A stretch of 64,000 nucleotides of DNA from positions 146,622 to 210,621 of the forward strand of contig CP055307.1 of the NCBI GenBank assembly GCA_013374835.1, given 5' to 3'. This document shows, piece after piece, positions 5,283-62,538 of the stretch; position 1 is the stretch's first letter; each line of letters begins with the position of its first letter. The notes below the pieces were generated by a model. It was not told the DNA's origin, did not search any database, and was given only the letters and a program-made list of their open reading frames with translations. Source of the DNA: Candidatus Woesebacteria bacterium. GTDB lineage: Bacteria > Patescibacteriota > Microgenomatia > UBA8517. The position numbers were made by a program, and so were the translations under genes.

Positions 5283-6245
5283 TCAATTTTTTGTACAGGA
5301 TCGTAACATATTCGACATACCTCCTTCCTGGATGAGATAGTCTGTTGGTGTCATATTACCTAGGGATTCATGTACTCTCTGGCAGTTGTAGTATATCAGG
5401 TACTTTGCAAGACGTTGATTGTAAGCTTTCTGGTTGTAGATAAGGTGGAGGTTGGGGTCAATAAAATCTTCCTGGATGGTCCTGTTGAAGCGCTCTACCA
5501 CCCCCTGGATCTTGGACATTCTGGGGTATATAAAAATGTGTTTGATGTTTTGTTTTTCTAGGTAAACCCTGAATTGTTTGAGAAACTCTTTACCATTGTC
5601 AGTCTGGACTGTGTGGATTTTGTAGGGAATAAGTGTTTGGAATTTCTTGAAGAAGTCCACAGTGTTAACTGAATTTAAGTGTTTGTAGGTCAGGGAAAGG
5701 GCAGACTTTCCCTTCACATCAATTGCCTGGTACATATACCACCTAATGCCATCAATGATTTTCTCCACAGTATCAGCTTGGATGTATCCCAGAGTTTCTG
5801 GTTTGGGTGCATATTTAATTCTGTTCTTCTTGCTCTTAGTCTTGTTTTGAGCCCATTTAGAGGCTGGATTGTGGTATACTCTGCCTGTTTTGTAATAAAA
5901 TAGATTGTTTCTTGAGATAATCCTCCCAATGGTAGCCTCTGATACTGTTAGGAGATTATTTTCTCTGCAGTATGCATCAAGTAAGGGTTTAAGCTTCTTC
6001 TTGCTCATTCTGGGGACAAACTCTCTTTGGGATTTAATATAATCAACAATTTTAGGATCCACTACTGACCTTCTTACCCCCCTTGGAGCTGTGGAGTCTG
6101 GAACTAACCCCTGGATACTCTTTCTCTCTAGTACTCTTTTCTTCCAGGTGAAGATAAGCTTGCGATCTACTCCAAAGGCCTCTTTTGTGGCAACCTCTCC
6201 ATGTTTGGCATAATACTTAATTATTCTTAGTCTTTCCTGGGCCAC
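5283..6245 (-). CDS. IS481-family DDE transposase (integrase core / rve domain).
   Basis: 320 aa with an N-terminal HTH. The DDE core shows YIQADTV...QTDNGKEF...VERFNRTI..., the pattern of retroviral-integrase-like IS481/IS3 transposases. The stop codon lies 9 nt beyond IRL. Confidence 0.85.
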   Translation of the reverse strand: MAQERLRIIKYYAKHGEVATKEAFGVDRKLIFTWKKRVLERKSIQGLVPDSTAPRGVRRSVVDPKIVDYIKSQREFVPRMSKKKLKPLLDAYCRENNLLTVSEATIGRIISRNNLFYYKTGRVYHNPASKWAQNKTKSKKNRIKYAPKPETLGYIQADTVEKIIDGIRWYMYQAIDVKGKSALSLTYKHLNSVNTVDFFKKFQTLIPYKIHTVQTDNGKEFLKQFRVYLEKQNIKHIFIYPRMSKIQGVVERFNRTIQEDFIDPNLHLIYNQKAYNQRLAKYLIYYNCQRVHESLGNMTPTDYLIQEGGMSNMLRSCTKN

Positions 6246-11711: not shown

Positions 11712-12377
11712 ATGATCGAAGACCCAAAAAAAATTCCCGGCAAAAAATCCGTAAAGCTTACAAGGGGAATAATTAAAAATATCGCATTTTTTGGAGACGC
11801 AAATGTATCTAAAACGGATTCGGTATATAAAGACGCTTTTGATATAGCAAAAATTCTTGCTTCCAAAGGTTTCACGATCGTAAATGGCGGCGGCCCTGGG
11901 GTAATGGACGCATCAACGCAAGGAGCCAAGGCAGCGGGCGGAGAAACAATTTCTGTTACTTTCTATCCAAAAGATGCGCCGGGTTTTGAAGGAAAATACT
12001 TAGGCAACATAACAGATAAAGAGGTAGTTACAAGCAATTACATTGAAAGAATGTTTAAACTCATAGAACACGCCGACATGTTTATAGTTTTTAAAGGCGG
12101 AAGCGGTACTGTTAGTGAATTTGGAACGGCTTGGGTATTGGCAAATATTTATTATGGGCACCATAAGCCATTTATTCTATACGGAGAATTTTGGATTGAG
12201 ATAATAGATGTACTGAGAAAAAATCTAAATATAGATAAACAAGAAATGTCTGTTTTTGAAATAGCGGTTAAAAAAGAAGACGTTTGTGCTATTATCGAAA
12301 AATTTGAAAACAAGCTTCAAAAAATGCACTCAAAAAAATACACAGAGGGAAAACGCTACATCAACAATGGCAAATAA
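11712..12377 (+). CDS. LOG-family protein (TIGR00730; cytokinin riboside 5'-monophosphate phosphoribohydrolase-like Rossmann protein).
   Basis: GGGPGVM and GGSGTVSE motifs (PGGxGTxxE). Confidence 0.75.
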   Translation: MIEDPKKIPGKKSVKLTRGIIKNIAFFGDANVSKTDSVYKDAFDIAKILASKGFTIVNGGGPGVMDASTQGAKAAGGETISVTFYPKDAPGFEGKYLGNITDKEVVTSNYIERMFKLIEHADMFIVFKGGSGTVSEFGTAWVLANIYYGHHKPFILYGEFWIEIIDVLRKNLNIDKQEMSVFEIAVKKEDVCAIIEKFENKLQKMHSKKYTEGKRYINNGK

Positions 12378-13197
12378 TAAAAAGCCCGACTTAGAAAAAA
12401 TATCTCGGAAAATTAGGATTGATATAATTAAAATGATCTCCAAAGCAGGCTCGGGTCATCCGGCTGGATCTCTAGGTATGGTGGAGGTTTTTGTCACACT
12501 ATACTTTGATATTCTTAATCACGATCCTAAAAATCCCGATTGGCCAATGCGCGATAGGCTAATTTTATCAAACGGGCATATATGTCCGGTTCTTTACGCT
12601 TGCTTGGCGCATAGCGGGTATTTCTCTCCCAAACAGCTCTCTTCACTTAGAAAATTCGGATCGCCTCTGCAGGGTCATCCCGAAAGAACCAAGCTTTCAG
12701 GAGTAGAAATAACATCGGGTCCTCTGGGTAGTGGTCTTGCCCAAGCAGCAGGCATAGCCTTGGCTGCTAAGATGGACGGAATGCGTTTTCGTGTTTTTGC
12801 CATCACAAGCGACGGTGAACACAACGAAGGCAGTCATTGGGAAGCAATAATGTTTGCATCTAAATATCGCCTTACAAATCTTACCCAAATTATCGACAGA
12901 AATAAAATCCAGCTTAGCGGCAACACAGAAGATATTATGCCAATAGAGCCTTTTGTCGAAAAATACAAAAGTTTCAATTGGCACGTAATTGAGATTAATG
13001 GCCATGATTTTGATGAGATTAAAGATGCAATTTCACAAGCACGGAATGAATATCAAGCTCCGACAGCAATCATTGCGAACACCATCCCTGGGAAAGGCGT
13101 AAGTTTTATGGAAAATCGTTACGAATGGCACGGAAAAGCGCCTAATAAAATCGAAACTAAAAAAGCGCTAAAAGAATTGGTCTCGCATGATAAATAA
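12367..13197 (+). CDS. tkt: Transketolase, N-terminal subunit (split tkt, thiamine-diphosphate-binding half).
   Basis: GSGHPAGSLGMVEV, DRLILSNGH and GPLGSGLAQAAGIALA. Confidence 0.9.
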   Translation: MANNKKPDLEKISRKIRIDIIKMISKAGSGHPAGSLGMVEVFVTLYFDILNHDPKNPDWPMRDRLILSNGHICPVLYACLAHSGYFSPKQLSSLRKFGSPLQGHPERTKLSGVEITSGPLGSGLAQAAGIALAAKMDGMRFRVFAITSDGEHNEGSHWEAIMFASKYRLTNLTQIIDRNKIQLSGNTEDIMPIEPFVEKYKSFNWHVIEINGHDFDEIKDAISQARNEYQAPTAIIANTIPGKGVSFMENRYEWHGKAPNKIETKKALKELVSHDK

Positions 13198-14161
13198 AAC
13201 AATTAAATTATCAAAAAAATTAAATTCCTGCCGTGATGCTTTTGGCAAAGCTTTAATTGAAGCAGGGGAGAAAGATCAAAACGTCGTTGTCCTTACAGCA
13301 GATTTGGAAGAATCCACCCGTGTCCACTATTTTAAAAATCGTTTTCCTGAACGCTTTTTTGATGTTGGTGTTTCTGAACAGGCACTTGCAGCCATAGCAT
13401 CAGGATTGGCAAATTACGGAAAAACTCCGGTTATAACTAGTTTTGCAACCTTTTCCCCGGGAAGAAATTGGGAGCAGATAAGAACAACAATTTGTATTAA
13501 TAAAGTGCCTGTAAAAATAGTCTCAACACACGCAGGTATAAATGTAGGCGAAGACGGAGCAACCCACCAAGCGCTTGAAGATATAGCTCTTATGAGGGTA
13601 CTTCCCAATATGGTTGTTATATCCCCGTCAGATGCAGAGGAAACCCGAAAAGCAATCTGTGCGGCACTAAAGACCAAAACGCCAGTTTATATCCGTCTCC
13701 CAAGATACGAAACCAAAATGTATACCACCCCAAGGACTCCATTTGAAATAGGTAAGGCGGTTTGCTTGTGGCAAGGCAAGGATCCCAAAGTAGCAATCAT
13801 GGCAGCGGGTCCCAGTGCAGTCAAGGCTCTTAAAGCTGCTCAAACTCTTTCAAAAAACGGCATCGAAAGTCTAGTTTTAAATAATCACACAATTAAGCCG
13901 ATCGATCAAGAAGCAATAGTAAATGCGGCAAAACTTACAGGCTGCGTTGTCACAATCGAAGACCATCAAATTAAAGGAGGCTTTGGCTCGGCAGTTGCTG
14001 AAACACTGTCAGAATTATTCCCTGTACCAATAGAATTTATCGGAATCAACGACAGTTTTGGTGAATCCGGAAAACCAAAAGAGCTTCTCACAAAATTCGG
14101 CCTTACGGCTGAAAACATAGTTGAAAAAGCTCTAAAAGCAATAAAAAGAAAAATGATTTAA
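13187..14161 (+). CDS. tkt: Transketolase, C-terminal subunit (pyrimidine-binding and C-terminal domains).
   Basis: FFDVGVSEQA, EDGATHQALEDIALMRVLPNM. It overlaps the N-terminal subunit by 11 nt. Confidence 0.9.
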   Translation: MINKTIKLSKKLNSCRDAFGKALIEAGEKDQNVVVLTADLEESTRVHYFKNRFPERFFDVGVSEQALAAIASGLANYGKTPVITSFATFSPGRNWEQIRTTICINKVPVKIVSTHAGINVGEDGATHQALEDIALMRVLPNMVVISPSDAEETRKAICAALKTKTPVYIRLPRYETKMYTTPRTPFEIGKAVCLWQGKDPKVAIMAAGPSAVKALKAAQTLSKNGIESLVLNNHTIKPIDQEAIVNAAKLTGCVVTIEDHQIKGGFGSAVAETLSELFPVPIEFIGINDSFGESGKPKELLTKFGLTAENIVEKALKAIKRKMI

Positions 14162-26594: not shown

Positions 26595-29045
26595 ATGGTA
26601 ACAAAAAAGAAGCAGCTTAATTTAGAGAGCCTAACATTTCCTTCATATGAGGAAATCAAAACTATAACAGAAAAAAGAGTAGGCAAGATGCCGAAGTTGC
26701 CAAAGGCTCTTCCAAAAGGAGATTGGTCCGAGCAGGCACTAAAAGTGCTGGAAGAAAGATATCTGCAAAGAAATATTAATAACGAAGTGAACGAAACCCC
26801 TGAAGAAATGATCTGGAGAGTTTCCTGGGAAATAGCTTCCGCGGAAGCGATCTGGGGTAAAAAAAGGTCAGAAGTTAGAAACAAAGCAATAGAATTCTAC
26901 AAGCTTCTTATAAGCCGCGAGTTTCTTCCGAATTCGCCAACCCTTATGAACGCCGGTACCGGAAACATGCTTCAATTTTCAGCGTGTTTTGTTCTTCCCG
27001 TAGACGATTCAATGGAGGGAATTTTTGACGCACTCAAATTCCAAGCATTAATACACAAAAGCGGGGGCGGAACCGGCTTTTCCTTCAGCCGCTTAAGACC
27101 TAAAGGATCCTTAGTTAAAAGTAGCAAAGGTACGGCATCGGGTCCAGTTTCGTTTATGAGGGTGTTCGACGCGGCAACGAATGAAGTAAAGCAGGGGGGG
27201 AAAAGAAGGGGGGCAAACATGGGTATCTTAAGAGTTGATCATCCGGACATTTTAGAATTTATCCACTGTAAAGAAGAGGGCGGAATTACAAACTTTAATA
27301 TATCAGTTGCAATTACGGACAAATTTATGGAAGCTTATGAAAAAGACGAAAACTACGACCTTTTAGATCCGAGAACACAAAAAAAGATAGGATCTCTTTC
27401 GGCGCGAAAAGTATTTACACAGATTGCTGAAGCTGCATGGAGAACGGGCGATCCGGGATTAATCTTTATAGATAGGATAAACATGTCCAAAGCAAATCCC
27501 GTACCATCACTTGGTCCTATCGAATCAACTAATCCATGTGGTGAACAGCCTTTATACCCCTTTGACTCCTGCAATCTTGGGAGTATTTTTTTAAGCTATT
27601 TTGTAAAAGAAGATAATAGTGGAGCAAAATCGGTAGATTGGGATAAATTAAAAAAAGTAACAAGACAAGCTGTGAATTTTTTGGACAACGTAATCGAGCT
27701 AAATCCTTATCCACTTGAGGAAATTAGAAGAATTTCCCTTGCAATAAGAAGAATAGGTCTTGGTGTAGGCGGATGGGCTGATATGTTAATCGATTTGGGC
27801 ATACCCTACGATTCTGAGCAAGCTCTCAGACTGGGAGAGAAAATTATGAAAACAATTAGCGAAGAAGCAGTAGCGGCTTCCGAGGATTTGGCTAAAAAAC
27901 GAGGCCCTTTTCCTCTTTGGCCGATTAGTATCTATAAAAACGATAAACCAAGAAGAAATTCAACAGTTACAACAATTGCTCCAACAGGCACAATTTCTAT
28001 AATTGCAGGCACATCAAGTGGTATAGAGCCGATTTTTGCAATAGCATTCCAGCATATTGTAAAAGATAAACATTTAGAAAGAACGCTAAATTTCATAAAT
28101 CCAAAATTCGAAGAAATAGCACGAAAACAGGGGTTTTGGTCCGAAGAAATAGAAAAAAAAGTATCAGAACACGGCACAATTAGAAGTATTGAAGAAATAC
28201 CCGAAGAAGTAAGAAACATATTTGGTACCGCCCACGAAATCCACCACGATTGGCATATAAAAATGCAGTCAGCCTTCCAAAAATATACGGAAAATGCAGT
28301 AAGTAAAACTATAAACCTAAGAAACGAAGTAACTCCTGAAGATGTAAAACAATCTTATGTTCTAGCTTGGAAAACGGGCTGCAGCGGAATCACTGTTTTC
28401 AGAGACGGCTGTAAAAACGCTCAAGTATTAAATCTCGGCATCAAAGAAGAAAAAGAGGGAGAAAAAGGCAATGGAATTATAAAACCAACAGAAGAACGCC
28501 CATTCAAAGTATCAGGTGCCACATACAAACTCAAAACTCCGGTAGGCACGGCCTTTATTACCATAAATGAGGACGACAAAGGCGAACCGATCGAAATATT
28601 TATAAACGTAGGCAAGGCCGGCAGTGATATTACAGCAGTCGCAGAAGCGCTCGGGCGCACGGTTTCAACAGCGCTTAGATTTAAAGGTGTGCTTAGCCCA
28701 AGACAAAGGGCGATAGAAATAGCTAGTCAGCTTTCTGGGATCGGAGGAAGAAGGTCTGTCGGCTTCGGTCCCAACAAAATTCGCTCTCTTCCAGATGCTG
28801 TTGCTGTTGCTCTTTCAAACCATCTTGGTTTTAAGATAAATGGAACTTATCACGAACAGGTAACAGACTCCGAAAAGCTCTATTTGAACAACAAAGAAGG
28901 TCAAGCATATAATTTTACTCAAACACAAGCTGCTTTGGAAATTGTATCGATTAAAGCGGATATTTGCCCTGTTTGTGGAGCAAACGCTTTAGTTTATGAA
29001 GAAGGGTGTGAAAAATGTCACGTCTGTGGTTATTCGGAATGTTAA
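26595..29045 (+). CDS. nrdJ: Class II (adenosylcobalamin-dependent) ribonucleotide reductase.
   Basis: 816 aa with LMNAGTGNMLQFSACFVLPVDDSMEGIF, NPCGEQPL and a C-terminal Cys zinc finger (CPVCG...CEKCHVCG). Confidence 0.9.
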   Translation: MVTKKKQLNLESLTFPSYEEIKTITEKRVGKMPKLPKALPKGDWSEQALKVLEERYLQRNINNEVNETPEEMIWRVSWEIASAEAIWGKKRSEVRNKAIEFYKLLISREFLPNSPTLMNAGTGNMLQFSACFVLPVDDSMEGIFDALKFQALIHKSGGGTGFSFSRLRPKGSLVKSSKGTASGPVSFMRVFDAATNEVKQGGKRRGANMGILRVDHPDILEFIHCKEEGGITNFNISVAITDKFMEAYEKDENYDLLDPRTQKKIGSLSARKVFTQIAEAAWRTGDPGLIFIDRINMSKANPVPSLGPIESTNPCGEQPLYPFDSCNLGSIFLSYFVKEDNSGAKSVDWDKLKKVTRQAVNFLDNVIELNPYPLEEIRRISLAIRRIGLGVGGWADMLIDLGIPYDSEQALRLGEKIMKTISEEAVAASEDLAKKRGPFPLWPISIYKNDKPRRNSTVTTIAPTGTISIIAGTSSGIEPIFAIAFQHIVKDKHLERTLNFINPKFEEIARKQGFWSEEIEKKVSEHGTIRSIEEIPEEVRNIFGTAHEIHHDWHIKMQSAFQKYTENAVSKTINLRNEVTPEDVKQSYVLAWKTGCSGITVFRDGCKNAQVLNLGIKEEKEGEKGNGIIKPTEERPFKVSGATYKLKTPVGTAFITINEDDKGEPIEIFINVGKAGSDITAVAEALGRTVSTALRFKGVLSPRQRAIEIASQLSGIGGRRSVGFGPNKIRSLPDAVAVALSNHLGFKINGTYHEQVTDSEKLYLNNKEGQAYNFTQTQAALEIVSIKADICPVCGANALVYEEGCEKCHVCGYSEC

Positions 29046-29049
29046 TTAT

Positions 29050-29589
29050 ATGTCTATCTACACCAAAAAGGGGGACAAAGGAACAACATCGCTTTTTAAC
29101 CCCGCACTTTACAAAGAAAAAAGAATTCCAAAAAGTGCCCAAAGAATAAGAGTAATAGGCGAAATAGATGAACTAAATAGCTTTCTTGGTATTATTTCAT
29201 CCAAAATTAGAAATAAAGATACTAAAAAATTTATTATCAAAATTCAAAAAAATTTATTTACCATAAACGCTGTTATTGCAGGTGCCAAATTGTCTTTCAA
29301 AAACGAAGAAACAAAGTTTTTGGAAAAAAAGATTGACAAAATCGAAAAATTGCTTCCGCCGCTCAAAAATTTCATAATACCGGGCGGAGACACTCTGGCC
29401 AGCGAAGTTATGTACGCTCGCACAATAGCAAGAAGGGCAGAAAGAGAGCTTGTTGCTTTGAGCAAAAAGGAAAAAGTCAAACCAAGCCTGCTCAAATACA
29501 TTAACAGACTTTCTGACGCTCTCTTTATGGTCTCAAGAAACATAAATTTTGCAAAAGGCAAAAAAGAGACTCCTTGGAAGCCTCGCTAA
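29050..29589 (+). CDS. PduO-type ATP:cob(I)alamin adenosyltransferase.
   Basis: MSIYTKKGDKGTTSL matches the PduO consensus YTRTGDKGTTSL. About 180 aa. It makes functional sense next to the B12-dependent RNR. Confidence 0.85.
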   Translation: MSIYTKKGDKGTTSLFNPALYKEKRIPKSAQRIRVIGEIDELNSFLGIISSKIRNKDTKKFIIKIQKNLFTINAVIAGAKLSFKNEETKFLEKKIDKIEKLLPPLKNFIIPGGDTLASEVMYARTIARRAERELVALSKKEKVKPSLLKYINRLSDALFMVSRNINFAKGKKETPWKPR

Positions 29590-32310: not shown

Positions 32311-32383
32311 GGATGCGTAGCTCAGTGGTTAGAGCACCGATCTTATAAGTCGGGGGTCGATGGTTCAAATCCATCCGCATCCA
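32311..32383 (+). tRNA. tRNA-Ile with anticodon UAU (TAT).
   Basis: Manual fold: acceptor GGATGCG/CGCATCC, D-arm GCTC-AGTGGTTA-GAGC, anticodon stem CCGAT/GTCGG with loop CTTATAA (U33, anticodon TAT, A37), T-arm GATGG-TTCAAAT-CCATC, discriminator A. Confidence 0.8.
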
Positions 32384-34101: not shown

Positions 34102-34171
34102 TGCGGGGTAGTGTAGGGTTGCACGGAAGGCTCATAATCTTCCAGACCGGGTTCAACTCCCGGCCCCGCAA
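34102..34171 (+). tRNA. tRNA with anticodon CAU (Met elongator, or Ile2 if lysidinylated).
   Basis: Manual fold: acceptor TGCGGGG/CCCCGCA, anticodon stem GAAGG/TCTTC with loop CTCATAA, T-arm CCGGG-TTCAACT-CCCGG. The D-loop and variable loop are short, and pair 1-72 is U-A. Confidence 0.6.
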
Positions 34172-34206: not shown

Positions 34207-34279
34207 GCCAGGGTAGCTCAGTCGGCAGAGCACAGGATTCATAAACCTGCGGTCGTGGGTTCGATCCCCACCCCTGGTA
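34207..34279 (+). tRNA. tRNA with anticodon CAU (Met, fMet or Ile2 cannot be distinguished).
   Basis: Manual fold: acceptor GCCAGGG/CCCTGGT (G1-U72), D-arm GCTC-AGTCGGCA-GAGC, anticodon loop TTCATAA, T-arm GTGGG-TTCGATC-CCCAC, discriminator A followed by CC. Confidence 0.7.
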
Positions 34280-49737: not shown

Positions 49738-51081
49738 ATGGAGAATAGTTTACCCGGCGAGACAGTGATTCCTCAATCAACTCAAAACCTGGGAAATACT
49801 GAACAAGGTGCGGGTTCCAGCAAAAAAGAAGCCTTAAACAATCTAAAAAAAGCGCTTGAAAATTTAAAAACAAATAATAATGAAGTCGACGCTTATCTAG
49901 AAATATGGAAAGCACAAAGGGGTATAGAAGAGATTTATCAAAGAGAAAGTCTGGGAATAAAAAGTCCTCTTTCTCCAGAAAAAGAAAAAAAAAGGATTGA
50001 AGAGTTTAATAACGAAATAGATTGTCTTAGGCAAGAATATACAAATAACCCCGATAAGTATGAGTCCTTCAAGAAAATTGTAGATGAGCGCTCAAAAAAA
50101 ATGATCGCAAGGCTCGAAAACGACCTTAATAGGATGCCGGAAAAGAATTTTCAACAGGAAGCAAGTATCTTCTTAAGAGAAAATTTTGAGACAGCCTTAA
50201 GGCGTGCACAAGCTATTTCACCAAACCATAGTCTTAAAGAAAATATAAACAATATTGAAATGAGTTTATTAAGGCTTTTTGCAGAAAACAAGCTTGATCG
50301 TTACACAAAGCTTCTTGCCAATATTAACAAAGGTAATAATGTTGATGAAGACGATCTTAGCAATGCCCGCAGTAGTGTAGAGCAATACCTGCAAGAAAAT
50401 AATGAATTTGCAAAAATGTTTATACGTCGCTTAAGAGCTCTAAATAAACTATTTGATGAAGCCGAGAAGGAAAGCCAAGAACAAAGTTCCAAGAGCTATG
50501 GACCCCCCAGATGGTTTTCCGAAGTAAGAGAAAAACCAACCCCTCAGCCTTCATCTCAAACACCTGCTCCAAAGCCTCAAATTCCGGACATCGGCGCGCC
50601 AAAACATAGAGCCGATGAAATAACCGAGGAAGAAGCACGTTTTGATCAAGAAGTAGCAAAAATAATAGAACAAGAAAAAGGCAACGCCAAAGCCATTGCC
50701 AAAAAGCTTCAAAAAGCTTCTGAAAAAGTTGACCGGTTCATGTTTTCAAAAAATTCCCAAAAAAGGCAAAAAGCACTTAATGAGCACCTGGTGCTTCTGG
50801 AAGCTTTTAGAAGTCTAAACTTTACTCACGAAAATTATAATAACACTGATATTTCATCTTTTCTCAAGTTGCACGCTGATCTTCATAAATTTGTCGCAGA
50901 TTTTAACCACCTCAGAATTACCAAAAAAGACGTGCGAAAATTTTTTCCAAGGCTCAAGATATTAAGAAGTAAGCCCAAACCCAGCGAACAAGATAAACTA
51001 ATAAAAATATCCTATTACATTCAAAATAAAAAAGCACGAAAAGATAAAGCGAAAATTGTTAAAAATTTAAAAGAAAAGTGA
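49738..51081 (+). CDS. Large hydrophilic coiled-coil hypothetical protein (447 aa).
   Basis: Charged, K/E/N-rich with heptad-like segments. No TM or signal peptide. Confidence 0.5.
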   Translation: MENSLPGETVIPQSTQNLGNTEQGAGSSKKEALNNLKKALENLKTNNNEVDAYLEIWKAQRGIEEIYQRESLGIKSPLSPEKEKKRIEEFNNEIDCLRQEYTNNPDKYESFKKIVDERSKKMIARLENDLNRMPEKNFQQEASIFLRENFETALRRAQAISPNHSLKENINNIEMSLLRLFAENKLDRYTKLLANINKGNNVDEDDLSNARSSVEQYLQENNEFAKMFIRRLRALNKLFDEAEKESQEQSSKSYGPPRWFSEVREKPTPQPSSQTPAPKPQIPDIGAPKHRADEITEEEARFDQEVAKIIEQEKGNAKAIAKKLQKASEKVDRFMFSKNSQKRQKALNEHLVLLEAFRSLNFTHENYNNTDISSFLKLHADLHKFVADFNHLRITKKDVRKFFPRLKILRSKPKPSEQDKLIKISYYIQNKKARKDKAKIVKNLKEK

Positions 51082-56235: not shown

Positions 56236-58187
56236 GTAGATCACTAGTACTTGGAAACGGCAGCATCCTGGTAGGAATCGATAATTACGCCCGGATAAGG
56301 GATTTCTATTTCGATTATGTTGGACTTGAAAATCACATGGGAGAAAATTCGCTTAATAAGATCGGGGTTTTTGTGGACGAAAAAATAAGCTGGCTTGATT
56401 CCGGAGAATGGGAAATAATTATTGACTACAAGCCGGAAACACTGGCAGGAAGCATTACAGCAATCAACGAATCATTGGAAATAGAGCTTTATTTTCTCGA
56501 TGTTGTTTATAACGAAAAAAATATTTTTCTGCGCGAAATAACTGTTAAAAATCTTGCCAAAAGGGCAAGAAACATTAAAGTTTTTTTAAACCATCAATTC
56601 AGGATGTACGGAATCGAAAAAAAAGACACGGTTTATTTTGATCCCGAAGACGAGGTAATTATCCACTATAAAGGCAGAAGAGTTTCTTTAATTGGTGGAG
56701 TAATGGATGATAAAAATGGTTTTTCCGATTATAGTGTAGGTCTTTCTGGTATAGAGGGCAGGGAAGGAACATGGATGGACGCGGAAGATGGGTCTTTACA
56801 AAAAAACGGAATAGAGCACGGCTCTGTAGATTCAACAATAGCCTTTGAAAAAAACGCGGATTCAAACGCAAGCTTTTCGTTTATAGTCTGGGTAGCTTTT
56901 GCAAAAACCCTCGATAGTGTCAAAAAAATCAATCTATACATTCTTAAAAAAACTCCCGAACACCTTCTTGAATCAACCCAAGACTTCTGGCATGCATGGC
57001 TGAACAAAACAAATTTTGACTTTTGTGACCTTGATAAAGAAATAGTCGATCTTTTTAAAAAATCTCTCCTTATTATGCGCACACACGTTGACAATACAGG
57101 TGCAATAATTGCATCAGGAGACTCAGAACTTCTTCGATACGGTCGGGATAATTATTCATATGTCTGGACTAGAGATGCGGCACAAGTGGCTTTAGCCTTC
57201 GACATGGCTGGTTATCAGGAAGTATCAAGAAAATTTTTTGAATTCGCAAACGAGGTAATAAGCGAGGAGGGTTACTTCTTCCATCGCTATCGCTGCGACA
57301 AATCATTAGGCAGCTCATGGCATCCATGGATTTCGGACGGTCGCCGCCAACTTCCTATCCAAGAAGACGAAACAGCTCTTGTAATCTACGCACTCTGGAA
57401 GCACTATGAGAATACAAAAAATCTTGAATTTATAGAAAGCATTTACAATTCACTTATCAAAAAAGCATCAAATTTTATGCTCGGCTTTAGGAATGAACTT
57501 AAATTACCCTTTCCAAGCTACGATCTCTGGGAAATGAAATACGGAATAAACACCTTCACATCAGCCTCGGTTTATGCTGCCTTAACAGCAGCCTCAGAAT
57601 TTGCAAAACTTCTTGGTAAAGAAAACGATGAAAAGTTATTCCGTCAAGGTGCCGATGAGCTAAAAGGGGCGATTGCTAAATATCTTTATAACGATAATAC
57701 CAGCTACTTTTATAAACTTATAGACATTGTAGAGGGAAATATAATCCACGATGAAACCATTGATTCAAGTAGCCTTCACGGAATATCTTTTTTTGAAGTC
57801 CTTCCAATAAATGACAGCAAATTAGAAGAAGCATACAAGGTTTTTAATTCACACCTAAGTTGTAACAGCGGGGTGGGTGGCATTGCCAGGTTTGAAAACG
57901 ATGAATATTTTAAAGATCCAAACACCCCCTGTCCGGGCAATCCTTGGTTTATAACTACGCTTTGGAAAGCACAATACGAAATCAAAAAAGCACAAAGCAA
58001 TAAAAATCTCAAAGAAGCTAAAGAAATTCTAAAATGGGTTACAAATAAAGCGCTTTTTTCAGGTATTCTTTCCGAACAAATTCATTGGGCAAACGGCAAC
58101 CAGCTTTCAGCTTCTCCTTTAGTTTGGAGCCATGCGGAATTTGTAATAACTATATTAATGTATATAAATAAATATGACAAAACTTAA
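56232..58187 (+). CDS. GH15-family glucoamylase/glucodextranase-like protein (COG3387).
   Basis: YSYVWTRDAAQVALAF and the catalytic (alpha/alpha)6 region. Confidence 0.75.
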   Translation: MSRSLVLGNGSILVGIDNYARIRDFYFDYVGLENHMGENSLNKIGVFVDEKISWLDSGEWEIIIDYKPETLAGSITAINESLEIELYFLDVVYNEKNIFLREITVKNLAKRARNIKVFLNHQFRMYGIEKKDTVYFDPEDEVIIHYKGRRVSLIGGVMDDKNGFSDYSVGLSGIEGREGTWMDAEDGSLQKNGIEHGSVDSTIAFEKNADSNASFSFIVWVAFAKTLDSVKKINLYILKKTPEHLLESTQDFWHAWLNKTNFDFCDLDKEIVDLFKKSLLIMRTHVDNTGAIIASGDSELLRYGRDNYSYVWTRDAAQVALAFDMAGYQEVSRKFFEFANEVISEEGYFFHRYRCDKSLGSSWHPWISDGRRQLPIQEDETALVIYALWKHYENTKNLEFIESIYNSLIKKASNFMLGFRNELKLPFPSYDLWEMKYGINTFTSASVYAALTAASEFAKLLGKENDEKLFRQGADELKGAIAKYLYNDNTSYFYKLIDIVEGNIIHDETIDSSSLHGISFFEVLPINDSKLEEAYKVFNSHLSCNSGVGGIARFENDEYFKDPNTPCPGNPWFITTLWKAQYEIKKAQSNKNLKEAKEILKWVTNKALFSGILSEQIHWANGNQLSASPLVWSHAEFVITILMYINKYDKT

Positions 58188-59013
58188 TTTGCCGTATCTT
58201 CTGATTGATATAGGAGGATCTTATACAAGACTTACGGTGAGCAAAAACAGCATAAGTTTTGTTGAGCCGGAAGTTTTTAAAACGCCCAAAAATTTCAGCA
58301 AAGCCGTTAAAAAAATAAAATTGCATGCCGATAAATGTTTGGGAAATGAAAAACCGGGCATTGTTGTCGTGGGAGTAGCAGGTCCGTTAAACTCGGATAA
58401 AAGCGCTCTTACAAACCCCCCAAATCTTAAGGCCTGGAGCGGTAAACCCCTTCAAAACAAACTTTCAAATATATTTGGTACACAGGTATTTCTAGAAAAC
58501 GATGCAGCAATAGTTGGCCTTGGCGAAGCGTCAAAGGGAGCAGGAGTAAATTACTCAATAGTTTCATATATTACCGTAAGTACAGGAATAAATGGAGCAC
58601 GAATAATTGATAAGAAAATAGACAGAAACGCTCAAGGGTTTGAAATAGGCCACCACATAATAGACGTTGATAAATCTATTCTTAAAAAATCCAAAGGAGA
58701 ACTTGAAGACTTTATCTCAGGCCGGGAAATTAAAAAAAGATTTGATAAAGACCCTTTTGAGATCGAAGATAATACCGTTTGGTCCGAGGTGGCAAAATTT
58801 TTAGCTGTTGGTATCCATAACACGATTCTTTTTTGGTCTCCCGAAGTTGTAGTTCTCGGCGGAAGCTTAATGAAAAAAATTAGCTTAAGTGAAACAAAAA
58901 AGGAATTAGAAAAAGTTATGAAAATACACCCTAAGCTACCCGAAATTAAAAAAGCCCAGCTAGGAAATTTCGGAGGACTCTGGGGTGCGCTTGAATACGC
59001 CAAATCCCTATGA
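58174..59013 (+). CDS. ROK-family sugar kinase (glucokinase-like).
   Basis: N-terminal LLIDIGGSYTRL (ATP-binding DxGGT), then VGVAGPL and NDAAIVGLGE. Confidence 0.75.
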   Translation: MTKLNLPYLLIDIGGSYTRLTVSKNSISFVEPEVFKTPKNFSKAVKKIKLHADKCLGNEKPGIVVVGVAGPLNSDKSALTNPPNLKAWSGKPLQNKLSNIFGTQVFLENDAAIVGLGEASKGAGVNYSIVSYITVSTGINGARIIDKKIDRNAQGFEIGHHIIDVDKSILKKSKGELEDFISGREIKKRFDKDPFEIEDNTVWSEVAKFLAVGIHNTILFWSPEVVVLGGSLMKKISLSETKKELEKVMKIHPKLPEIKKAQLGNFGGLWGALEYAKSL

Positions 59014-59648
59014 TTTTTAAAAACAGGTTAAAGTTTATAAAAATTATCTATTTCATTTTTCTTTTGATACCGGCATTTTTAGTACTTTCTCCCGAGAAAA
59101 AGACGTCTCTATCCTATCAAATGGGGCAATTATCAGGAGCCCTTGCAATTACAATGATTTCAGTCCAGTTTGTACTTTCATCAAGGTTTAGATTTTTAGA
59201 AAAATCCATAGGCTACGATAAATTAATTAGACTCCATTCCCAAAATGCGAGGTTTATACTTCTTTTTGTACTGCTGCATCCGCTTTTCCTTTTTTCGGCA
59301 ATAACCCCTTTCACGCTTGATTATTGGCAAGGCAAGCTTGCCCTAACACTTATTTTAATAGTAGCCATTACAAGCATTTATTCCGATAAGCTTAACTACG
59401 AAAAGTGGAAAGTTATTCATAAATTAACCTATCTTATAGTTTTTTTAGGTTTCTTACATAGCTTTACCGAAGGATCCGATATCGTTTCTCAAAGCCCGTT
59501 TTACTATTGGTGGCTTTTTCTTATGTTCTTAGTCGTAGTCTCCGTCACACACAGATTTAAAAAGCTTTATTTTAATAAAAATATTTATGAAGTAGTTGAT
59601 ATTAGAAAAGAAACAAACTCGGGCGGACTATCAGTCTTAGACCCCTAA
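59010..59648 (+). pseudogene. Ferric-reductase-like bis-heme transmembrane domain (NOX/FRE family). This is the N-terminal part of a frameshifted gene.
   Basis: His pairs are spaced 14 residues (LHSQNARFILLFVLLH) and 13 residues (IHKLTYLIVFLGFLH) apart, as in gp91phox. The ORF ends where the FAD-binding domain should begin. Confidence 0.7.
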
Positions 59649-60250
59649 ATGGCAAATTATTCAATTACAAGCCTGCCCAATTCGCTTTCGTTACTTTTTA
59701 CTCCTATGCTTTGCCGAAAGAAGAGCATCATTTTACAATAACATCCATGCCTAGGGAGGAGACTCTTTCCTTTACCATCAAAGAATCGGGAGATTTTACT
59801 TCAAAGCTCGGACTTCTTAAAAAGGGAGATAAAGCAAAGGTCGACGGTCCCTACGGAGCATTAAGCGAAAGCCTTGGAGAAGATAGCGCGCTTTTTATAG
59901 CGGCAGGGATTGGGATAACTCCAATCAAAAACCTCCTTTCTAAAGGCTCAAAGCTTATCTACGCCGTCAAAAATGAAAAAGAAATAGTCTTTAAGGATTT
60001 TTTGGAAAAAAAAGCTAAAAAAAATGAAATCGATCTTGTTTACGTTTTTTCTCGTAAACTATCCCCAAACAACGAATTCAAAGCCTACAAAGGTCATATA
60101 GATAAAAAAATTCTTGAAAAAGAAATCAACGGTTTTAAAAAGGTGGTTTTGGTAGCTCCTCCTGCGTTAGTTAAAGCTTTAAAAAAAGATTTAATATCTC
60201 TCGGGGTCAAAAAAACAAATATCTTCATAGAAATATTCTCCCTAAAGTAA
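59606..60250 (+). pseudogene. FAD/NAD-binding dehydrogenase domain of the same NOX/FRE-like gene, in a different frame.
   Basis: In frame +2, open from 59606: ...ISLRPLNGKLFNYKPAQFAFVTFYSYALPKEEHHFTITS (the HPFT-type FAD motif), then ALFIAAGIGITP (NAD binding). There is no in-frame ATG before the motif. Confidence 0.7.
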
Positions 60251-60302
60251 GTGCTTGTTGACTTATTCGTATTTTTCTTTGTATAGTGGGAAGCGTCAAC
60301 CT

Positions 60303-60623
60303 ATGGCATTAATAGACATAACGGATCAAGATTTTCAGGAAAAAGTATTAAATTCAGATACTCCAGTATTGATAGATTTCTGGGCTCCATGGTGCGGACC
60401 GTGCAAAATGGCAGCTCCCGCCCTCGAAGAACTTTCCGAGACCTATAAAGATAAAGTCAAATTCTTGAAAATAAATGTTGACGAAAACCAAACAAATGCG
60501 TCAAGCCTTGGCGTCATGTCTATTCCCACAACCATTTTGTTCAATCAAGGAAAAGAGATAGGAAGACAAATTGGCTTTGCAGGCAAGCAAGCATTCGAGG
60601 ATTTACTAAAGAAAATAAATTAA
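60303..60623 (+). CDS. trxA: Thioredoxin.
   Basis: WAPWCGPCK active site. Confidence 0.92.
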   Translation: MALIDITDQDFQEKVLNSDTPVLIDFWAPWCGPCKMAAPALEELSETYKDKVKFLKINVDENQTNASSLGVMSIPTTILFNQGKEIGRQIGFAGKQAFEDLLKKIN

Positions 60624-60657
60624 ATCTGTTAATATAAAATCAAAGGGGGTGATAAAA

Positions 60658-60966
60658 ATGGTATACGACGATACTCAAAATCCAACCTCTCCAGCATCGA
60701 ACATAGGTAGTGGAGTGCCTCAGTCGACAGAACCGGCTGCACAAACCCCACAATACCCATCTCAAGCAAGTCAGACTCAAGTAATGGCAGATGAGCCAAC
60801 GGCGCCGGAAGTGCCTGTTACTGGCTCCGCAACCACACCCGAGCCAACACAGCCAGTTGAGCCGCAGCCAACTGCGAACATGGGTGGTTCAATGCAGGAA
60901 CCCACAATGCCTTCTCAAAGTAGCGATGAAGACACAAACACGGGAGGTACGGGTTCGCAAGCATAA
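60658..60966 (+). CDS. Intrinsically disordered P/T/Q/S-rich acidic small protein.
   Basis: Strong SD (AAGGGGGTGATAAAAATG). The sequence is MVYDDTQNPTSPASNIGSGVPQSTEPAAQTPQYP... Confidence 0.45.
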   Translation: MVYDDTQNPTSPASNIGSGVPQSTEPAAQTPQYPSQASQTQVMADEPTAPEVPVTGSATTPEPTQPVEPQPTANMGGSMQEPTMPSQSSDEDTNTGGTGSQA

Positions 60967-61026
60967 ATGGCAATTTTTGTTTATTAAACGAAGCGGGCAA
61001 GTTTGCTCGCTTCGTAAACTACAATT

Positions 61027-62001
61027 ATGAATGATTTTTTTGCACCAAAACCTAAAGAAAATGAGCCCTGGGACACTGCTATTATAGGTTCAGGCCCTGC
61101 TGGATTAACAGCCGCAATCTATTTAACGCGCGGCGCAGCCTCAACCATTCTTTTTGCCGGAGATCAATGGGGAGGCCAATTAATGCTTACAACTCAAGTT
61201 GACAATTATCCGGGCTTTCCTGAAGGAATTCTGGGGCCGGATCTCATGAGTAAAATACGCTCTCAAGCCGCTCGTTTTGGTACCGAAATAATCGAACAAA
61301 ACGTTACTTCTTTAGAAAAAAAAGACAAAATTTTTATTATCAAAGCCGGCGAAAAGAATTTTTTTTCCAAATCAGTCATAATTACAACAGGCGCTAAAAC
61401 ACGCTGGCTCGAGGTACCGGGCGAAGAGAAACTAAGAGGAAGAGGTGTGAGCTCTTGCGCTCCCTGTGATGCACCTTTTTTTAAAGACAAAAAAGTAGCA
61501 GTAATCGGGGGAGGAGATTCAGCAATGGAGGAAGCCTTGGTTCTTACAAAATACGCATCTGAAGTGACCATAATCCACAGAAGAGAAGAATTCAAAGCTT
61601 CCCAGGCAATGCAAAAAAAAGTAATGAGTAACGAGAAAATCAAAATAGTTTGGAATAGCGAAGTAGTGGAATTTATAGGCGAAACGAATCTGGAAAAAAT
61701 TAAAATAAAAAACACATTAACACAAAAAGAAAAAGAAATTGATTTTGAAGGAGCTTTTGTGGCAATAGGCCATGATCCCGCAAGCGAAATATTCAAGGGA
61801 CTACTTGAGCTCGATGAAAAAGGCTATATCAAAAAATTTGAAAAAAATGGCTTCAAAACCGCAACAAGTCAAAAGGGTATCTTTGTTGCAGGAGACGTGC
61901 ACGACTCTCATTATCGTCAGGCAATAACAGCAGCAGGCTTTGGCTGTATGGCAGCAATGGATGCGCTAAATTATTTAGATAAAGATACTCCGTCTTGGTA
62001 A
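61027..62001 (+). CDS. trxB: Thioredoxin-disulfide reductase.
   Basis: FAD site AIIGSGPAGLTAAIY, the redox-active GVSSCAPCDAPFF, and NADPH site AVIGGGDSAMEEA. Confidence 0.9.
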   Translation: MNDFFAPKPKENEPWDTAIIGSGPAGLTAAIYLTRGAASTILFAGDQWGGQLMLTTQVDNYPGFPEGILGPDLMSKIRSQAARFGTEIIEQNVTSLEKKDKIFIIKAGEKNFFSKSVIITTGAKTRWLEVPGEEKLRGRGVSSCAPCDAPFFKDKKVAVIGGGDSAMEEALVLTKYASEVTIIHRREEFKASQAMQKKVMSNEKIKIVWNSEVVEFIGETNLEKIKIKNTLTQKEKEIDFEGAFVAIGHDPASEIFKGLLELDEKGYIKKFEKNGFKTATSQKGIFVAGDVHDSHYRQAITAAGFGCMAAMDALNYLDKDTPSW

Positions 62002-62007
62002 GAAAAA

Positions 62008-62538
62008 TTAGTTTAAATTTTCAAGAATTTTATAAGAAACTACCGCAGCACTTCCCCAGACGTTAAATGATTTATTAATCCCAAGCATAGGAAGCTCCAC
62101 TATCATATCAGCCATTTGAAGAATCTTACCTGAAATACCCCTTGATTCATGCCCGAGAACAAGGGCAACTGGAAAGTCTAGCTTTAAATTTTTGTAGCTA
62201 ACAGATTTTGGATCTTGCTCAATCGCAATTATTTGGTATTTATTATTTTTAAGCTCGGTTATTACTTCTATCGAACTATCCCGTTTTTCCCAAGGAACCC
62301 AGTTTTCAGTACCTACCGCTGCTTTATGAATTCTTGTAGATGGCGGGTACTCCATCTCGCCACAAAGATACATTTTTCTGGCGGCGATAGCATCCGCAAG
62401 CCTAAATAAACTTCCTATATTATATGTATCAAGTATTTCATCCAGCACAAAAACGATCGGATTTCTCTTGATCTTTTTTATATCTTTCTCGCTTGGCAAA
62501 GAAATTCTAAGCTCTGCTGCATTCTTTTTTTTCATCAC
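62008..62538 (-). CDS. TrmH/SpoU-family RNA 2'-O-methyltransferase.
   Basis: LVLGHESRGIS and ELPMLGINKSFNVWGSAAVVSY (SPOUT knot motifs). Confidence 0.8.
   Translation of the reverse strand: MMKKKNAAELRISLPSEKDIKKIKRNPIVFVLDEILDTYNIGSLFRLADAIAARKMYLCGEMEYPPSTRIHKAAVGTENWVPWEKRDSSIEVITELKNNKYQIIAIEQDPKSVSYKNLKLDFPVALVLGHESRGISGKILQMADMIVELPMLGINKSFNVWGSAAVVSYKILENLN

Follow-up and report, generated by a model that had tools for sequence, protein, structure and literature searches.

A single-base deletion in an SpNOX-like flavocytochrome gene of Candidatus Woesebacteria, most likely a recent pseudogene

Do two overlapping reading frames upstream of the thioredoxin genes of a Candidatus Woesebacteria bacterium encode two redox proteins or one broken enzyme, and if the latter, what broke it? 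The question arises in a stretch of 64,000 nucleotides (assembly GCA_013374835.1, contig CP055307.1, positions 146,622 to 210,621 of the forward strand), here called the window and numbered from its first base. A preliminary description had taken the two frames for a single NADPH oxidase (NOX)/FRE-type di-haem reductase gene, split by a one-nucleotide indel, and had offered an assembly error, a recent pseudogenisation or a programmed frameshift as the cause. We find that an SpNOX-like gene has suffered a genuine single-base deletion at this locus, and we consider it most likely, with good confidence, that the locus now holds a recent pseudogene of an accessory, dispensable gene.

The upstream open reading frame (ORF1) extends from 59010 to 59648 on the forward strand and encodes 212 amino acids (aa), from an ATG that overlaps the stop codon of the upstream ROK-family gene (ATGA) to a TAA at 59646-59648. 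It contains the entire six-helix ferric-reductase (cytochrome b) domain, a linker and strand beta-1 of the FAD domain, and its last eight residues, GGLSVLDP, form an out-of-frame tail ahead of the stop. The Pfam family Ferric_reduct (PF01794) matches ORF1 with an E-value of 7.8e-13 and 49 bits (cut-off 28). Two pairs of haem-ligand histidines were found with the spacing of 14 and 13 residues given in the preliminary description: His76 (59235-59237) and His90 (59277-59279) on transmembrane helix 3 (TM3; H-X13-H, 59235-59279), and His137 (59418-59420) and His150 (59457-59459) on TM5 (H-X12-H, 59418-59459), all on the forward strand. All four are invariant across a 39-member family alignment (A1), and ORF1 keeps every one of the residues Q53, R59, G68, H76, H90, P91, W133, H137 and H150 when aligned to family members.

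The dehydrogenase remainder was located in the -1 (= +2) frame of the same strand at 59624-60250, comprising 208 codons and a TAA. This frame is open from 59606 to its stop at 60248-60250, as had been described, and matches FAD_binding_8 (PF08022; E 2.7e-9) and NAD_binding_1 (PF00175; E 9e-7), the latter being the best match of the NAD domain in place of the NAD_binding_6 that had been expected. It carries the sequence EEHHFTITS, with HHFTI at 59726-59740, as well as GIGITP at 59906-59923 and the C-terminal residues E408 and F410. With one T restored the gene encodes 413 aa, of which residues 206-413 correspond to 59624-60247 by tblastn, and in the Pfam searches the ferric-reductase and FAD_binding_8 domains were both above cut-off. 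A crude hydropathy scan detected five of the six TM helices, and all six are present in a structure model of the intact orthologue described below.

A search with the repaired protein identified an orthologue, P0001, that is a single ORF of 415 aa with 91% protein identity. A second protein, P0128, differs from P0001 by one aa and was found on 12 contigs from several projects, including GCA_002329465.1; the two represent one lineage, here called the sister lineage. Its gene order is that of the window, namely glycosyltransferase (GT)-GH57-GH15-ROK-reductase-trxA-acidic protein-trxB. DNA alignment with the orthologue contigs L001 and L002 places the frameshift between 59622 and 59623 of the forward strand, where one T is missing: the intact orthologue, TCGGTGCGC, aligns at the break to TCGG-GCGG of the window, and reads TCG GTG CGC (S V R) in codons. 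At 94% DNA identity, this missing T is the sole frame-breaking difference between the two genes, and it is not part of a T homopolymer (GG[T]GC). In the orthologue model the break falls in the turn between beta-1 (residues 194-202) and beta-2 (207-214) of the FAD-binding barrel. The same alignment revealed an in-frame deletion of 6 nucleotides (nt) in the window at 59391-59392 of the forward strand, which removes two residues from the cytoplasmic TM4-TM5 loop (SDKL--NYE compared with SDKLKINYE in the orthologue); these residues are present in most family members and absent from a few. With the orthologue intact and the missing T lying at 59622/59623, a single gene is indeed split by a 1-nt indel within the interval of 59606-59648 that had been proposed.

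The broken 212-aa ORF was recovered on four contigs, including the NCBI contig and two per-run Logan assemblies. One of these (L003, run SRR6825875) is 100% identical to the window across 15 kb, and the other (L004, run SRR6825879) has the same break on a haplotype with 8 substitutions and zero gaps over 14 kb. When JGI metagenome contigs were scanned with a pattern that fits either allele, one contig matched, and it carries the intact allele. Over 8.7 kb aligned to the orthologue only four indels occur, two of them 1-nt changes in intergenic DNA and two inside the reductase gene. Other split genes were sought among four overlapping same-strand ORF pairs of the window (GAPDH/Rpe, LOG-like/transketolase-N, GT1/Fpg, and ribonucleotide reductase (RNR)/cobalamin adenosyltransferase), and each pair proved to consist of complete, unrelated genes. 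Because the same break is present in separate assemblies of two runs, one with 8 single-nucleotide polymorphisms (SNPs), the deletion is a real mutation rather than an assembly error, and at least two closely related haplotypes share it.

The differences between the window and L004 are at 50785, 51285, 51616, 54873, 56122, 59840, 60787 and 62198. At all eight positions the window has G or C and L004 has A or T, and all eight are nonsynonymous by our frame assignment. This pattern resembles very recent mutation with an AT bias and under little purifying selection; damage artefacts are another possibility.

Apart from the frameshift, the gene is without decay. The repaired protein keeps 28 of the 28 invariant columns of the 39-member alignment, among them Q53, R59, G68, the four histidines, Q224, H240, K258, G261, D262, T264, GIGITP, E408 and F410. 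Scored with a profile built from outgroups only, it reaches 456.6 bits compared with 458.5 for the intact orthologue. The ratio of nonsynonymous to synonymous substitution rates (dN/dS) against the orthologue, a pairwise average over both lineages, is 0.20 for the N-terminal and 0.33 for the C-terminal part, compared with 0.06-0.15 for neighbouring enzymes and 0.06 for trxA. At the 34 positions where window and orthologue differ in aa, the commoner outgroup state is that of the window in 20 and that of the orthologue in 12; this polarisation, which uses amino acids only and treats P0001/P0128 as one lineage with the next homologues about 44% identical, indicated no excess of change on the window lineage. 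Since neither the invariant columns nor the profile score, dN/dS or outgroup-state counts reveal decay, the event is recent. The location of both coding indels of the 8.7 kb in the reductase gene is consistent with relaxed constraint in the window lineage.

We then considered whether expression of the broken gene might be rescued. The frame-0 codons from 59604 to 59648 read AGA AAA GAA ACA AAC TCG GGC GGA CTA TCA GTC TTA GAC CCC TAA, and the overlap at 59606-59648 contains no slippery heptamer of the form X_XXY_YYZ. No stimulatory RNA structure is predicted for 59600-59730, where the minimum free energy is -19.8 kcal/mol compared with a shuffle mean of -20.6 (z 0.23). Neither is a frameshift conserved in relatives: the gene is uninterrupted in the sister lineage on more than 12 contigs, and 38 of 38 other aligned homologues are single ORFs. 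The sole possible site for a -1 slip back into the dehydrogenase frame, and a speculative one, is C_CCC_TAA at the end of ORF1 (59642-59648, forward strand). A -1 slip of peptidyl-tRNA-Pro at this site would re-enter at the Pro codon of the orthologue and give a product of the length of the intact protein in which seven residues, VRTISLR, are replaced by GGLSVLD; this product scores 443 bits against the family profile, 13.6 below the repaired protein. The intact orthologue shares the ACCCCT run. The C-run is thus ancestral and at most a leak, not an evolved programme. For independent translation of the downstream part, the first ATG in the dehydrogenase frame is at 59747 and the only earlier canonical start is a TTG at 59711, whose use would cost three strands of the FAD barrel according to the orthologue model; a product begun at the ATG would likewise lack barrel strands. 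No Shine-Dalgarno-like sequence is visible ahead of 59711 or 59747. A restart at the ATG at 59649, directly after the TAA of ORF1, was discarded, this ATG being in the wrong frame and opening an ORF of 30 aa.

The assignment to the NOX/FRE-type di-haem flavocytochromes, as made in the preliminary description, is borne out by the Pfam domains and by matches to SpNOX in both sequence and fold. Among solved structures, sequence comparison ranks SpNOX, the NADPH oxidase of Streptococcus pneumoniae, first (entries 8QQ7, 8QT6 and 8QTA; E about 1e-24, residues 23-395), followed by DUOX1, NOX2 and the CsNOX5 dehydrogenase domain. Of the two comparators named earlier, the Streptococcus enzyme is thus the top match, while the Cylindrospermum NOX5 is matched in its dehydrogenase domain with an E-value of 6e-6 only. 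An AlphaFold model was made for the intact 415-aa orthologue, not for the window copy, from a 56-sequence alignment; it has a mean pLDDT of 92.7 and a pTM of 0.88, and in it six TM helices lead into an FNR-like beta-barrel and a Rossmann domain. Foldseek placed full-length SpNOX (8QT6) on top of its matches to this model (TM-scores 0.78/0.81, E 2e-24), followed by DUOX1, NOX5 and NOX2.

We also compared the gene with the features by which Hajjar et al. (2017; PMC5676040) defined bacterial NOX. A six-helix ferric-reductase domain is supported by PF01794 and the orthologue model, the two His-X12-14-His motifs lie on separate helices (TM3 and TM5), and GIGITP occupies residues 300-305 of the repaired protein and is invariant in A1. 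The C-terminal aromatic residue is F410, fourth from the C-terminus and invariant in the family alignment; its counterpart in SpNOX, F397, stacks on FAD (PMC11564096). The overall fold of SpNOX is recovered in the orthologue model. The TM and dehydrogenase parts are on one polypeptide in P0001/P0128 and not in the window copy. Eukaryote-type NOX (NOX5-like, Cylindrospermum) are set apart by features that this protein does not have, since it shows no PF08030 match and no extra N-terminal domain.

The FAD motif departs from the published pattern H[PSA]F[TS][LIMV]: the sequence, described earlier as HPFT, is HHFTI, with His at the second position. Among 39 aligned relatives, 33 carry HH[FW][TS] and likewise fail the strict pattern. 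HHFTI retains the His, Phe and Thr of the motif, and FAD_binding_8 is matched above cut-off. HHFT is a subfamily variant rather than a lost FAD site. The gene belongs to an SpNOX-like sub-clade that is missed by the published motif screen, and surveys that rely on this screen under-count the family, as EEHH[FW]T replaces HPFT in this clade.

The family is widespread. We found at least 439 proteins at E<=1e-5 among 8000 scored candidates, and at least 202 confirmed relatives, all of them distant, among 600 candidate stretches (GTDB species genomes); the counts of distribution and gene context given here refer to the best 80 loci of these at least 202. They span Verrucomicrobiota, Desulfobacterota, Planctomycetota, Cyanobacteria, Chloroflexota, Actinomycetota, Streptococcus and archaea, and 12 of the 80 are from the Candidate Phyla Radiation (CPR), namely Saccharibacteria, Peregrinibacteria, Buchananbacteria, Uhrbacteria, Falkowbacteria and a 'Patescibacteria group'. 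Named Woesebacteria and Patescibacteria proteins are also among the homologues. These numbers overturn the statement that such reductases are rare in bacteria and unexpected in a CPR genome; the CPR-like character of the genome itself agrees with the nearest named TrxB matches, which are from Woesebacteria and Patescibacteria.

Downstream of the reductase gene, on the same strand, follow trxA (60303-60623, from Pfam labels on the identical Logan contigs), a gene for an acidic protein rich in Pro, Thr, Ser and Gln (60658-60966, no Pfam match) and trxB (61027-62001, with homologues named thioredoxin-disulfide reductase). Between the reductase stop and trxA lies a promoter-like site, TTGACT-18-TATAGT (60258-60287, forward strand), which matches the sigma-70-type consensus at 10 of 12 positions and is the best such match in 58000-62200, a match being no proof of function. 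L095, a relative with 64% TrxB identity and no reductase gene, has these -35 and -10 elements ahead of trxA as well. The site suggests that trxA, the acidic protein gene and trxB form a separate transcription unit.

Two relatives (L094 and L095; TrxB 64-67% identical) have the order GT-GH57-GH15-ROK-trxA-small acidic protein-trxB-(DsbA-like)-SpoU and no reductase gene. When the TrxA, TrxB, acidic protein, ROK and SpoU sequences of the window were compared by tblastn with the best 80 loci, one trxB and one ROK match were obtained; trxA lies within 6 kb of the reductase gene in 0 of the 80 and trxB in 1 of the 80. Four closer homologues (37-40% identity) are in unrelated gene contexts with no trxA or trxB. 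Because relatives keep the trx block without the reductase and distant loci have the reductase without trx, the adjacency is lineage-specific. The reductase gene is probably an accessory gene beside a conserved housekeeping thioredoxin unit, since ROK is directly followed by trxA in the two relatives.

The ROK-to-trxA segments concerned are 3515-4704 in L094 and 3461-4679 in L095, compared with 58174-60303 in the window, and in both relatives a DsbA-like gene follows trxB. In the window and the sister lineage the reductase gene is inserted and no DsbA-like gene is present, a difference which indicates that redox accessory genes were gained, or differentially lost, around a trx core that stays fixed. 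The acidic protein contains no Lys or Arg, is rich in Pro, Thr, Ser and Gln and has a net charge of -10 to -12. It is always found between trxA and trxB in this CPR clade (window 60658-60966, L001 11584-11892, L094 4728-4988, L095 4680-4994); it is conserved in composition, hardly alignable in sequence, and has a dN/dS of 0.84 against the sister lineage. The ORF list starts it at a GTG at 60649, and the relatives point to the ATG at 60658.

Several points weigh against reading the locus as a recent pseudogene. Loss of function is inferred from the sequence. Both Logan runs are possibly from the same study as the NCBI genome, and a minority intact allele may be present in the samples SRR6825875 and SRR6825879. 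A dN/dS below 1 is an average over both lineages and gives no precise date. Slippage at C_CCC_TAA could yield some full-length product, and ORF1, a complete di-haem domain, could still act in an MsrQ-like way together with a separate reductase. The alternatives behind these points differ in how they fare. An assembly or sequencing error, in which the T would be present in the true genome and the 413-aa gene intact, would suit a change of a single base in a gene that, once repaired, is without any decay, and the contigs with the break may stem from related read sets. It is nevertheless very unlikely as the cause, given a break that recurs in the per-run assemblies of two runs and on an 8-SNP haplotype, a lost T outside any T homopolymer, 8.7 kb of alignment with no coding indel outside the reductase gene, and no other split gene among the suspicious ORF pairs. 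A leaky or programmed -1 frameshift, with peptidyl-tRNA-Pro slipping on C_CCC_TAA while the stop codon is in the A site, would explain why a run of four C and a stop stand exactly at the end of ORF1, why the product has the length of the intact protein and still scores 443 bits, and why the downstream frame is perfectly kept. The last observation is equally explained by a recent event, the C-run is ancestral, the relatives' gene is uninterrupted, and neither a canonical heptamer nor a structure nor a Shine-Dalgarno-like stimulator is visible; we therefore regard this third of the offered causes as highly improbable. The same very small probability is given to its physiological variant, in which the gene would be alive and the tRNA-Pro slip would supply a low level of full-length enzyme next to an abundant stand-alone di-haem domain. 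Were it true, a constitutive electron exporter of a CPR bacterium would have become a down-tuned one through a new mutation.

A functional split, with ORF1 acting as an MsrQ/YedZ-like di-haem cytochrome that is reduced by a separate dehydrogenase fragment or another flavin reductase, draws on the entire TM domain with its four His ligands in ORF1 and on the existence of bacterial two-component pairs of ferric-reductase-domain and flavin-reductase proteins (MsrQ; PMC5676040, PMC11564096). The dehydrogenase frame, however, has no ATG, GTG or TTG before 59711, a start there would leave the FAD barrel without beta-2 to beta-3, neither it nor the ATG at 59747 is preceded by a Shine-Dalgarno-like sequence, the MsrQ match is far below threshold (17.9 compared with 130 bits), and no MsrP-like or other partner gene is nearby; we consider such a split quite unlikely. 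The preliminary description had further seen a compact redox module of the reductase with trxA and trxB. The gene order stood up as described and the functional link did not. That the reductase and thioredoxin form one redox module, for instance by coupling an export of reducing power to thioredoxin, is suggested by genes that are adjacent and on the same strand in both the window and the sister lineage. It is extremely improbable in view of the 80 distant loci, a single one of which has trxA or trxB within 6 kb, of the 4 closer contexts, where neither occurs, of relatives that carry trxA-acidic-trxB without a reductase, of the separate promoter-like site before trxA, and of trx genes that are intact and strongly constrained next to a broken reductase gene. 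Recent pseudogenisation, the remaining cause on offer, fits a real lesion with no further decay and no rescue signal.

For the intact enzyme, a mechanism can be proposed by analogy with the structures and enzymology of SpNOX (PMC11564096, PMC11031084, PMC5676040). Cytoplasmic NAD(P)H would bind the Rossmann domain, the C-terminal Phe (F410 here) would be displaced and a hydride would pass to FAD, from which single electrons would travel over the inner and the outer haem b and reach an acceptor on the outside. This external acceptor could be O2 or a protein partner; SpNOX is promiscuous in what it finally reduces, and its authors left room for O2 not being the physiological acceptor (PMC11564096). 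In the window lineage the chain would end after beta-1 of the FAD domain, ahead of beta-2, and no entry of electrons is expected.

At three CPR loci (Woesebacteria, one unclassified contig and Peregrinibacteria) a gene for a membrane-anchored cupredoxin lies 4-140 nt from the NOX-like gene, on either side of it (L086 4547-4996, L087 3890-4297 and L009 about 5530-5862; Pfam Cupredoxin_1/Copper-bind). This arrangement suggests the cupredoxin as a candidate extracellular protein acceptor in some lineages of the clade. No cupredoxin was detected in the window by tblastn, and a literature search combining ferric reductase, Patescibacteria and cupredoxin returned nothing relevant.

Elsewhere in the window, a class II-type RNR with a TSCPD domain is followed by a cobalamin adenosyltransferase (26595-29589), and the segment 9926-14161 encodes GAPDH, ribulose-phosphate 3-epimerase, a LOG/SLOG-family protein, a transketolase N-terminal-domain ORF (12286-13197) and a 324-aa ORF (13187-14161). 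This set of RNR, GAPDH, Rpe and other genes is typical of reduced CPR metabolism. The thioredoxin system probably counts RNR among its clients, and the thioredoxin unit plausibly serves the class II enzyme at 26595-29045. An Rfam scan of the 64 kb identified three tRNAs only (32311-32383, 34102-34171 and 34207-34279) and no match near the reductase locus.

If the gene is a recent pseudogene, as we favour, an accessory electron-exporting flavocytochrome is being lost in one population of a Patescibacteria genome of ~0.9 Mb and kept by a sister population, and the locus would then be a small, clean case of a reduced genome in the act of losing a gene. Annotators should join the two ORFs (212 aa and 167/179 aa) into a single entry marked as a pseudogene, and should list them neither as a ferric reductase and an oxidoreductase nor as a thioredoxin-linked module. 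More useful leads are the HHFT variant that escapes motif screens and the cupredoxin neighbours in several CPR lineages.

Set against known systems, the locus records an ordinary event in a known, widespread family and holds no new system. The two-component MsrQ (YedZ)/Fre system resembles it in having a di-haem membrane protein with a ferric-reductase domain that passes electrons outward, and the truncated ORF1 looks like a stand-alone protein of this kind. MsrQ is, however, a separate family (NCBIfam NF003831, whose cut-off ORF1 does not approach), the division in the window arose by mutation of a gene that the sister lineage retains in fused form, and no MsrP-like gene adjoins ORF1. The eukaryotic enzymes NOX2 (gp91phox), NOX5 and DUOX1 have the same His spacing (14 and 13) and the same fold of the catalytic core; their sequence matches are much weaker (E about 1e-7), and the protein of the window is without EF-hands, a peroxidase domain or insertions for a p22phox-type partner. 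Closer in sequence are full-length homologues from Patescibacteria, Desulfobacterota and other phyla (30-45% identity), which NCBI names 'ferredoxin reductase family protein' or 'ferric reductase-like transmembrane domain-containing protein'. They have the identical three Pfam domains and the EEHHFT signature and differ in that their genes are intact and their gene contexts are unlike that of the window. The best counterpart is SpNOX itself (PDB 8QQ7, 8QT6; PMC5676040, PMC11031084, PMC11564096). The identity to it is only about 23%, its FAD motif follows H[PSA]F[TS] in place of HHFT, VAPP replaces the usual CGP motif in the window lineage, the outer TM3-TM4 loop and the first helix of the NAD domain are shorter in the window, and the window copy is frameshifted. 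Both share a minimal architecture of ~400 aa with no regulatory domains, in which six TM helices with H-X13-H and H-X12-H are followed by a FAD domain and an NAD(P)H domain with GIGITP, and both SpNOX and the repaired protein have an aromatic residue fourth from the C-terminus, F397 in the former and F410 in the latter.

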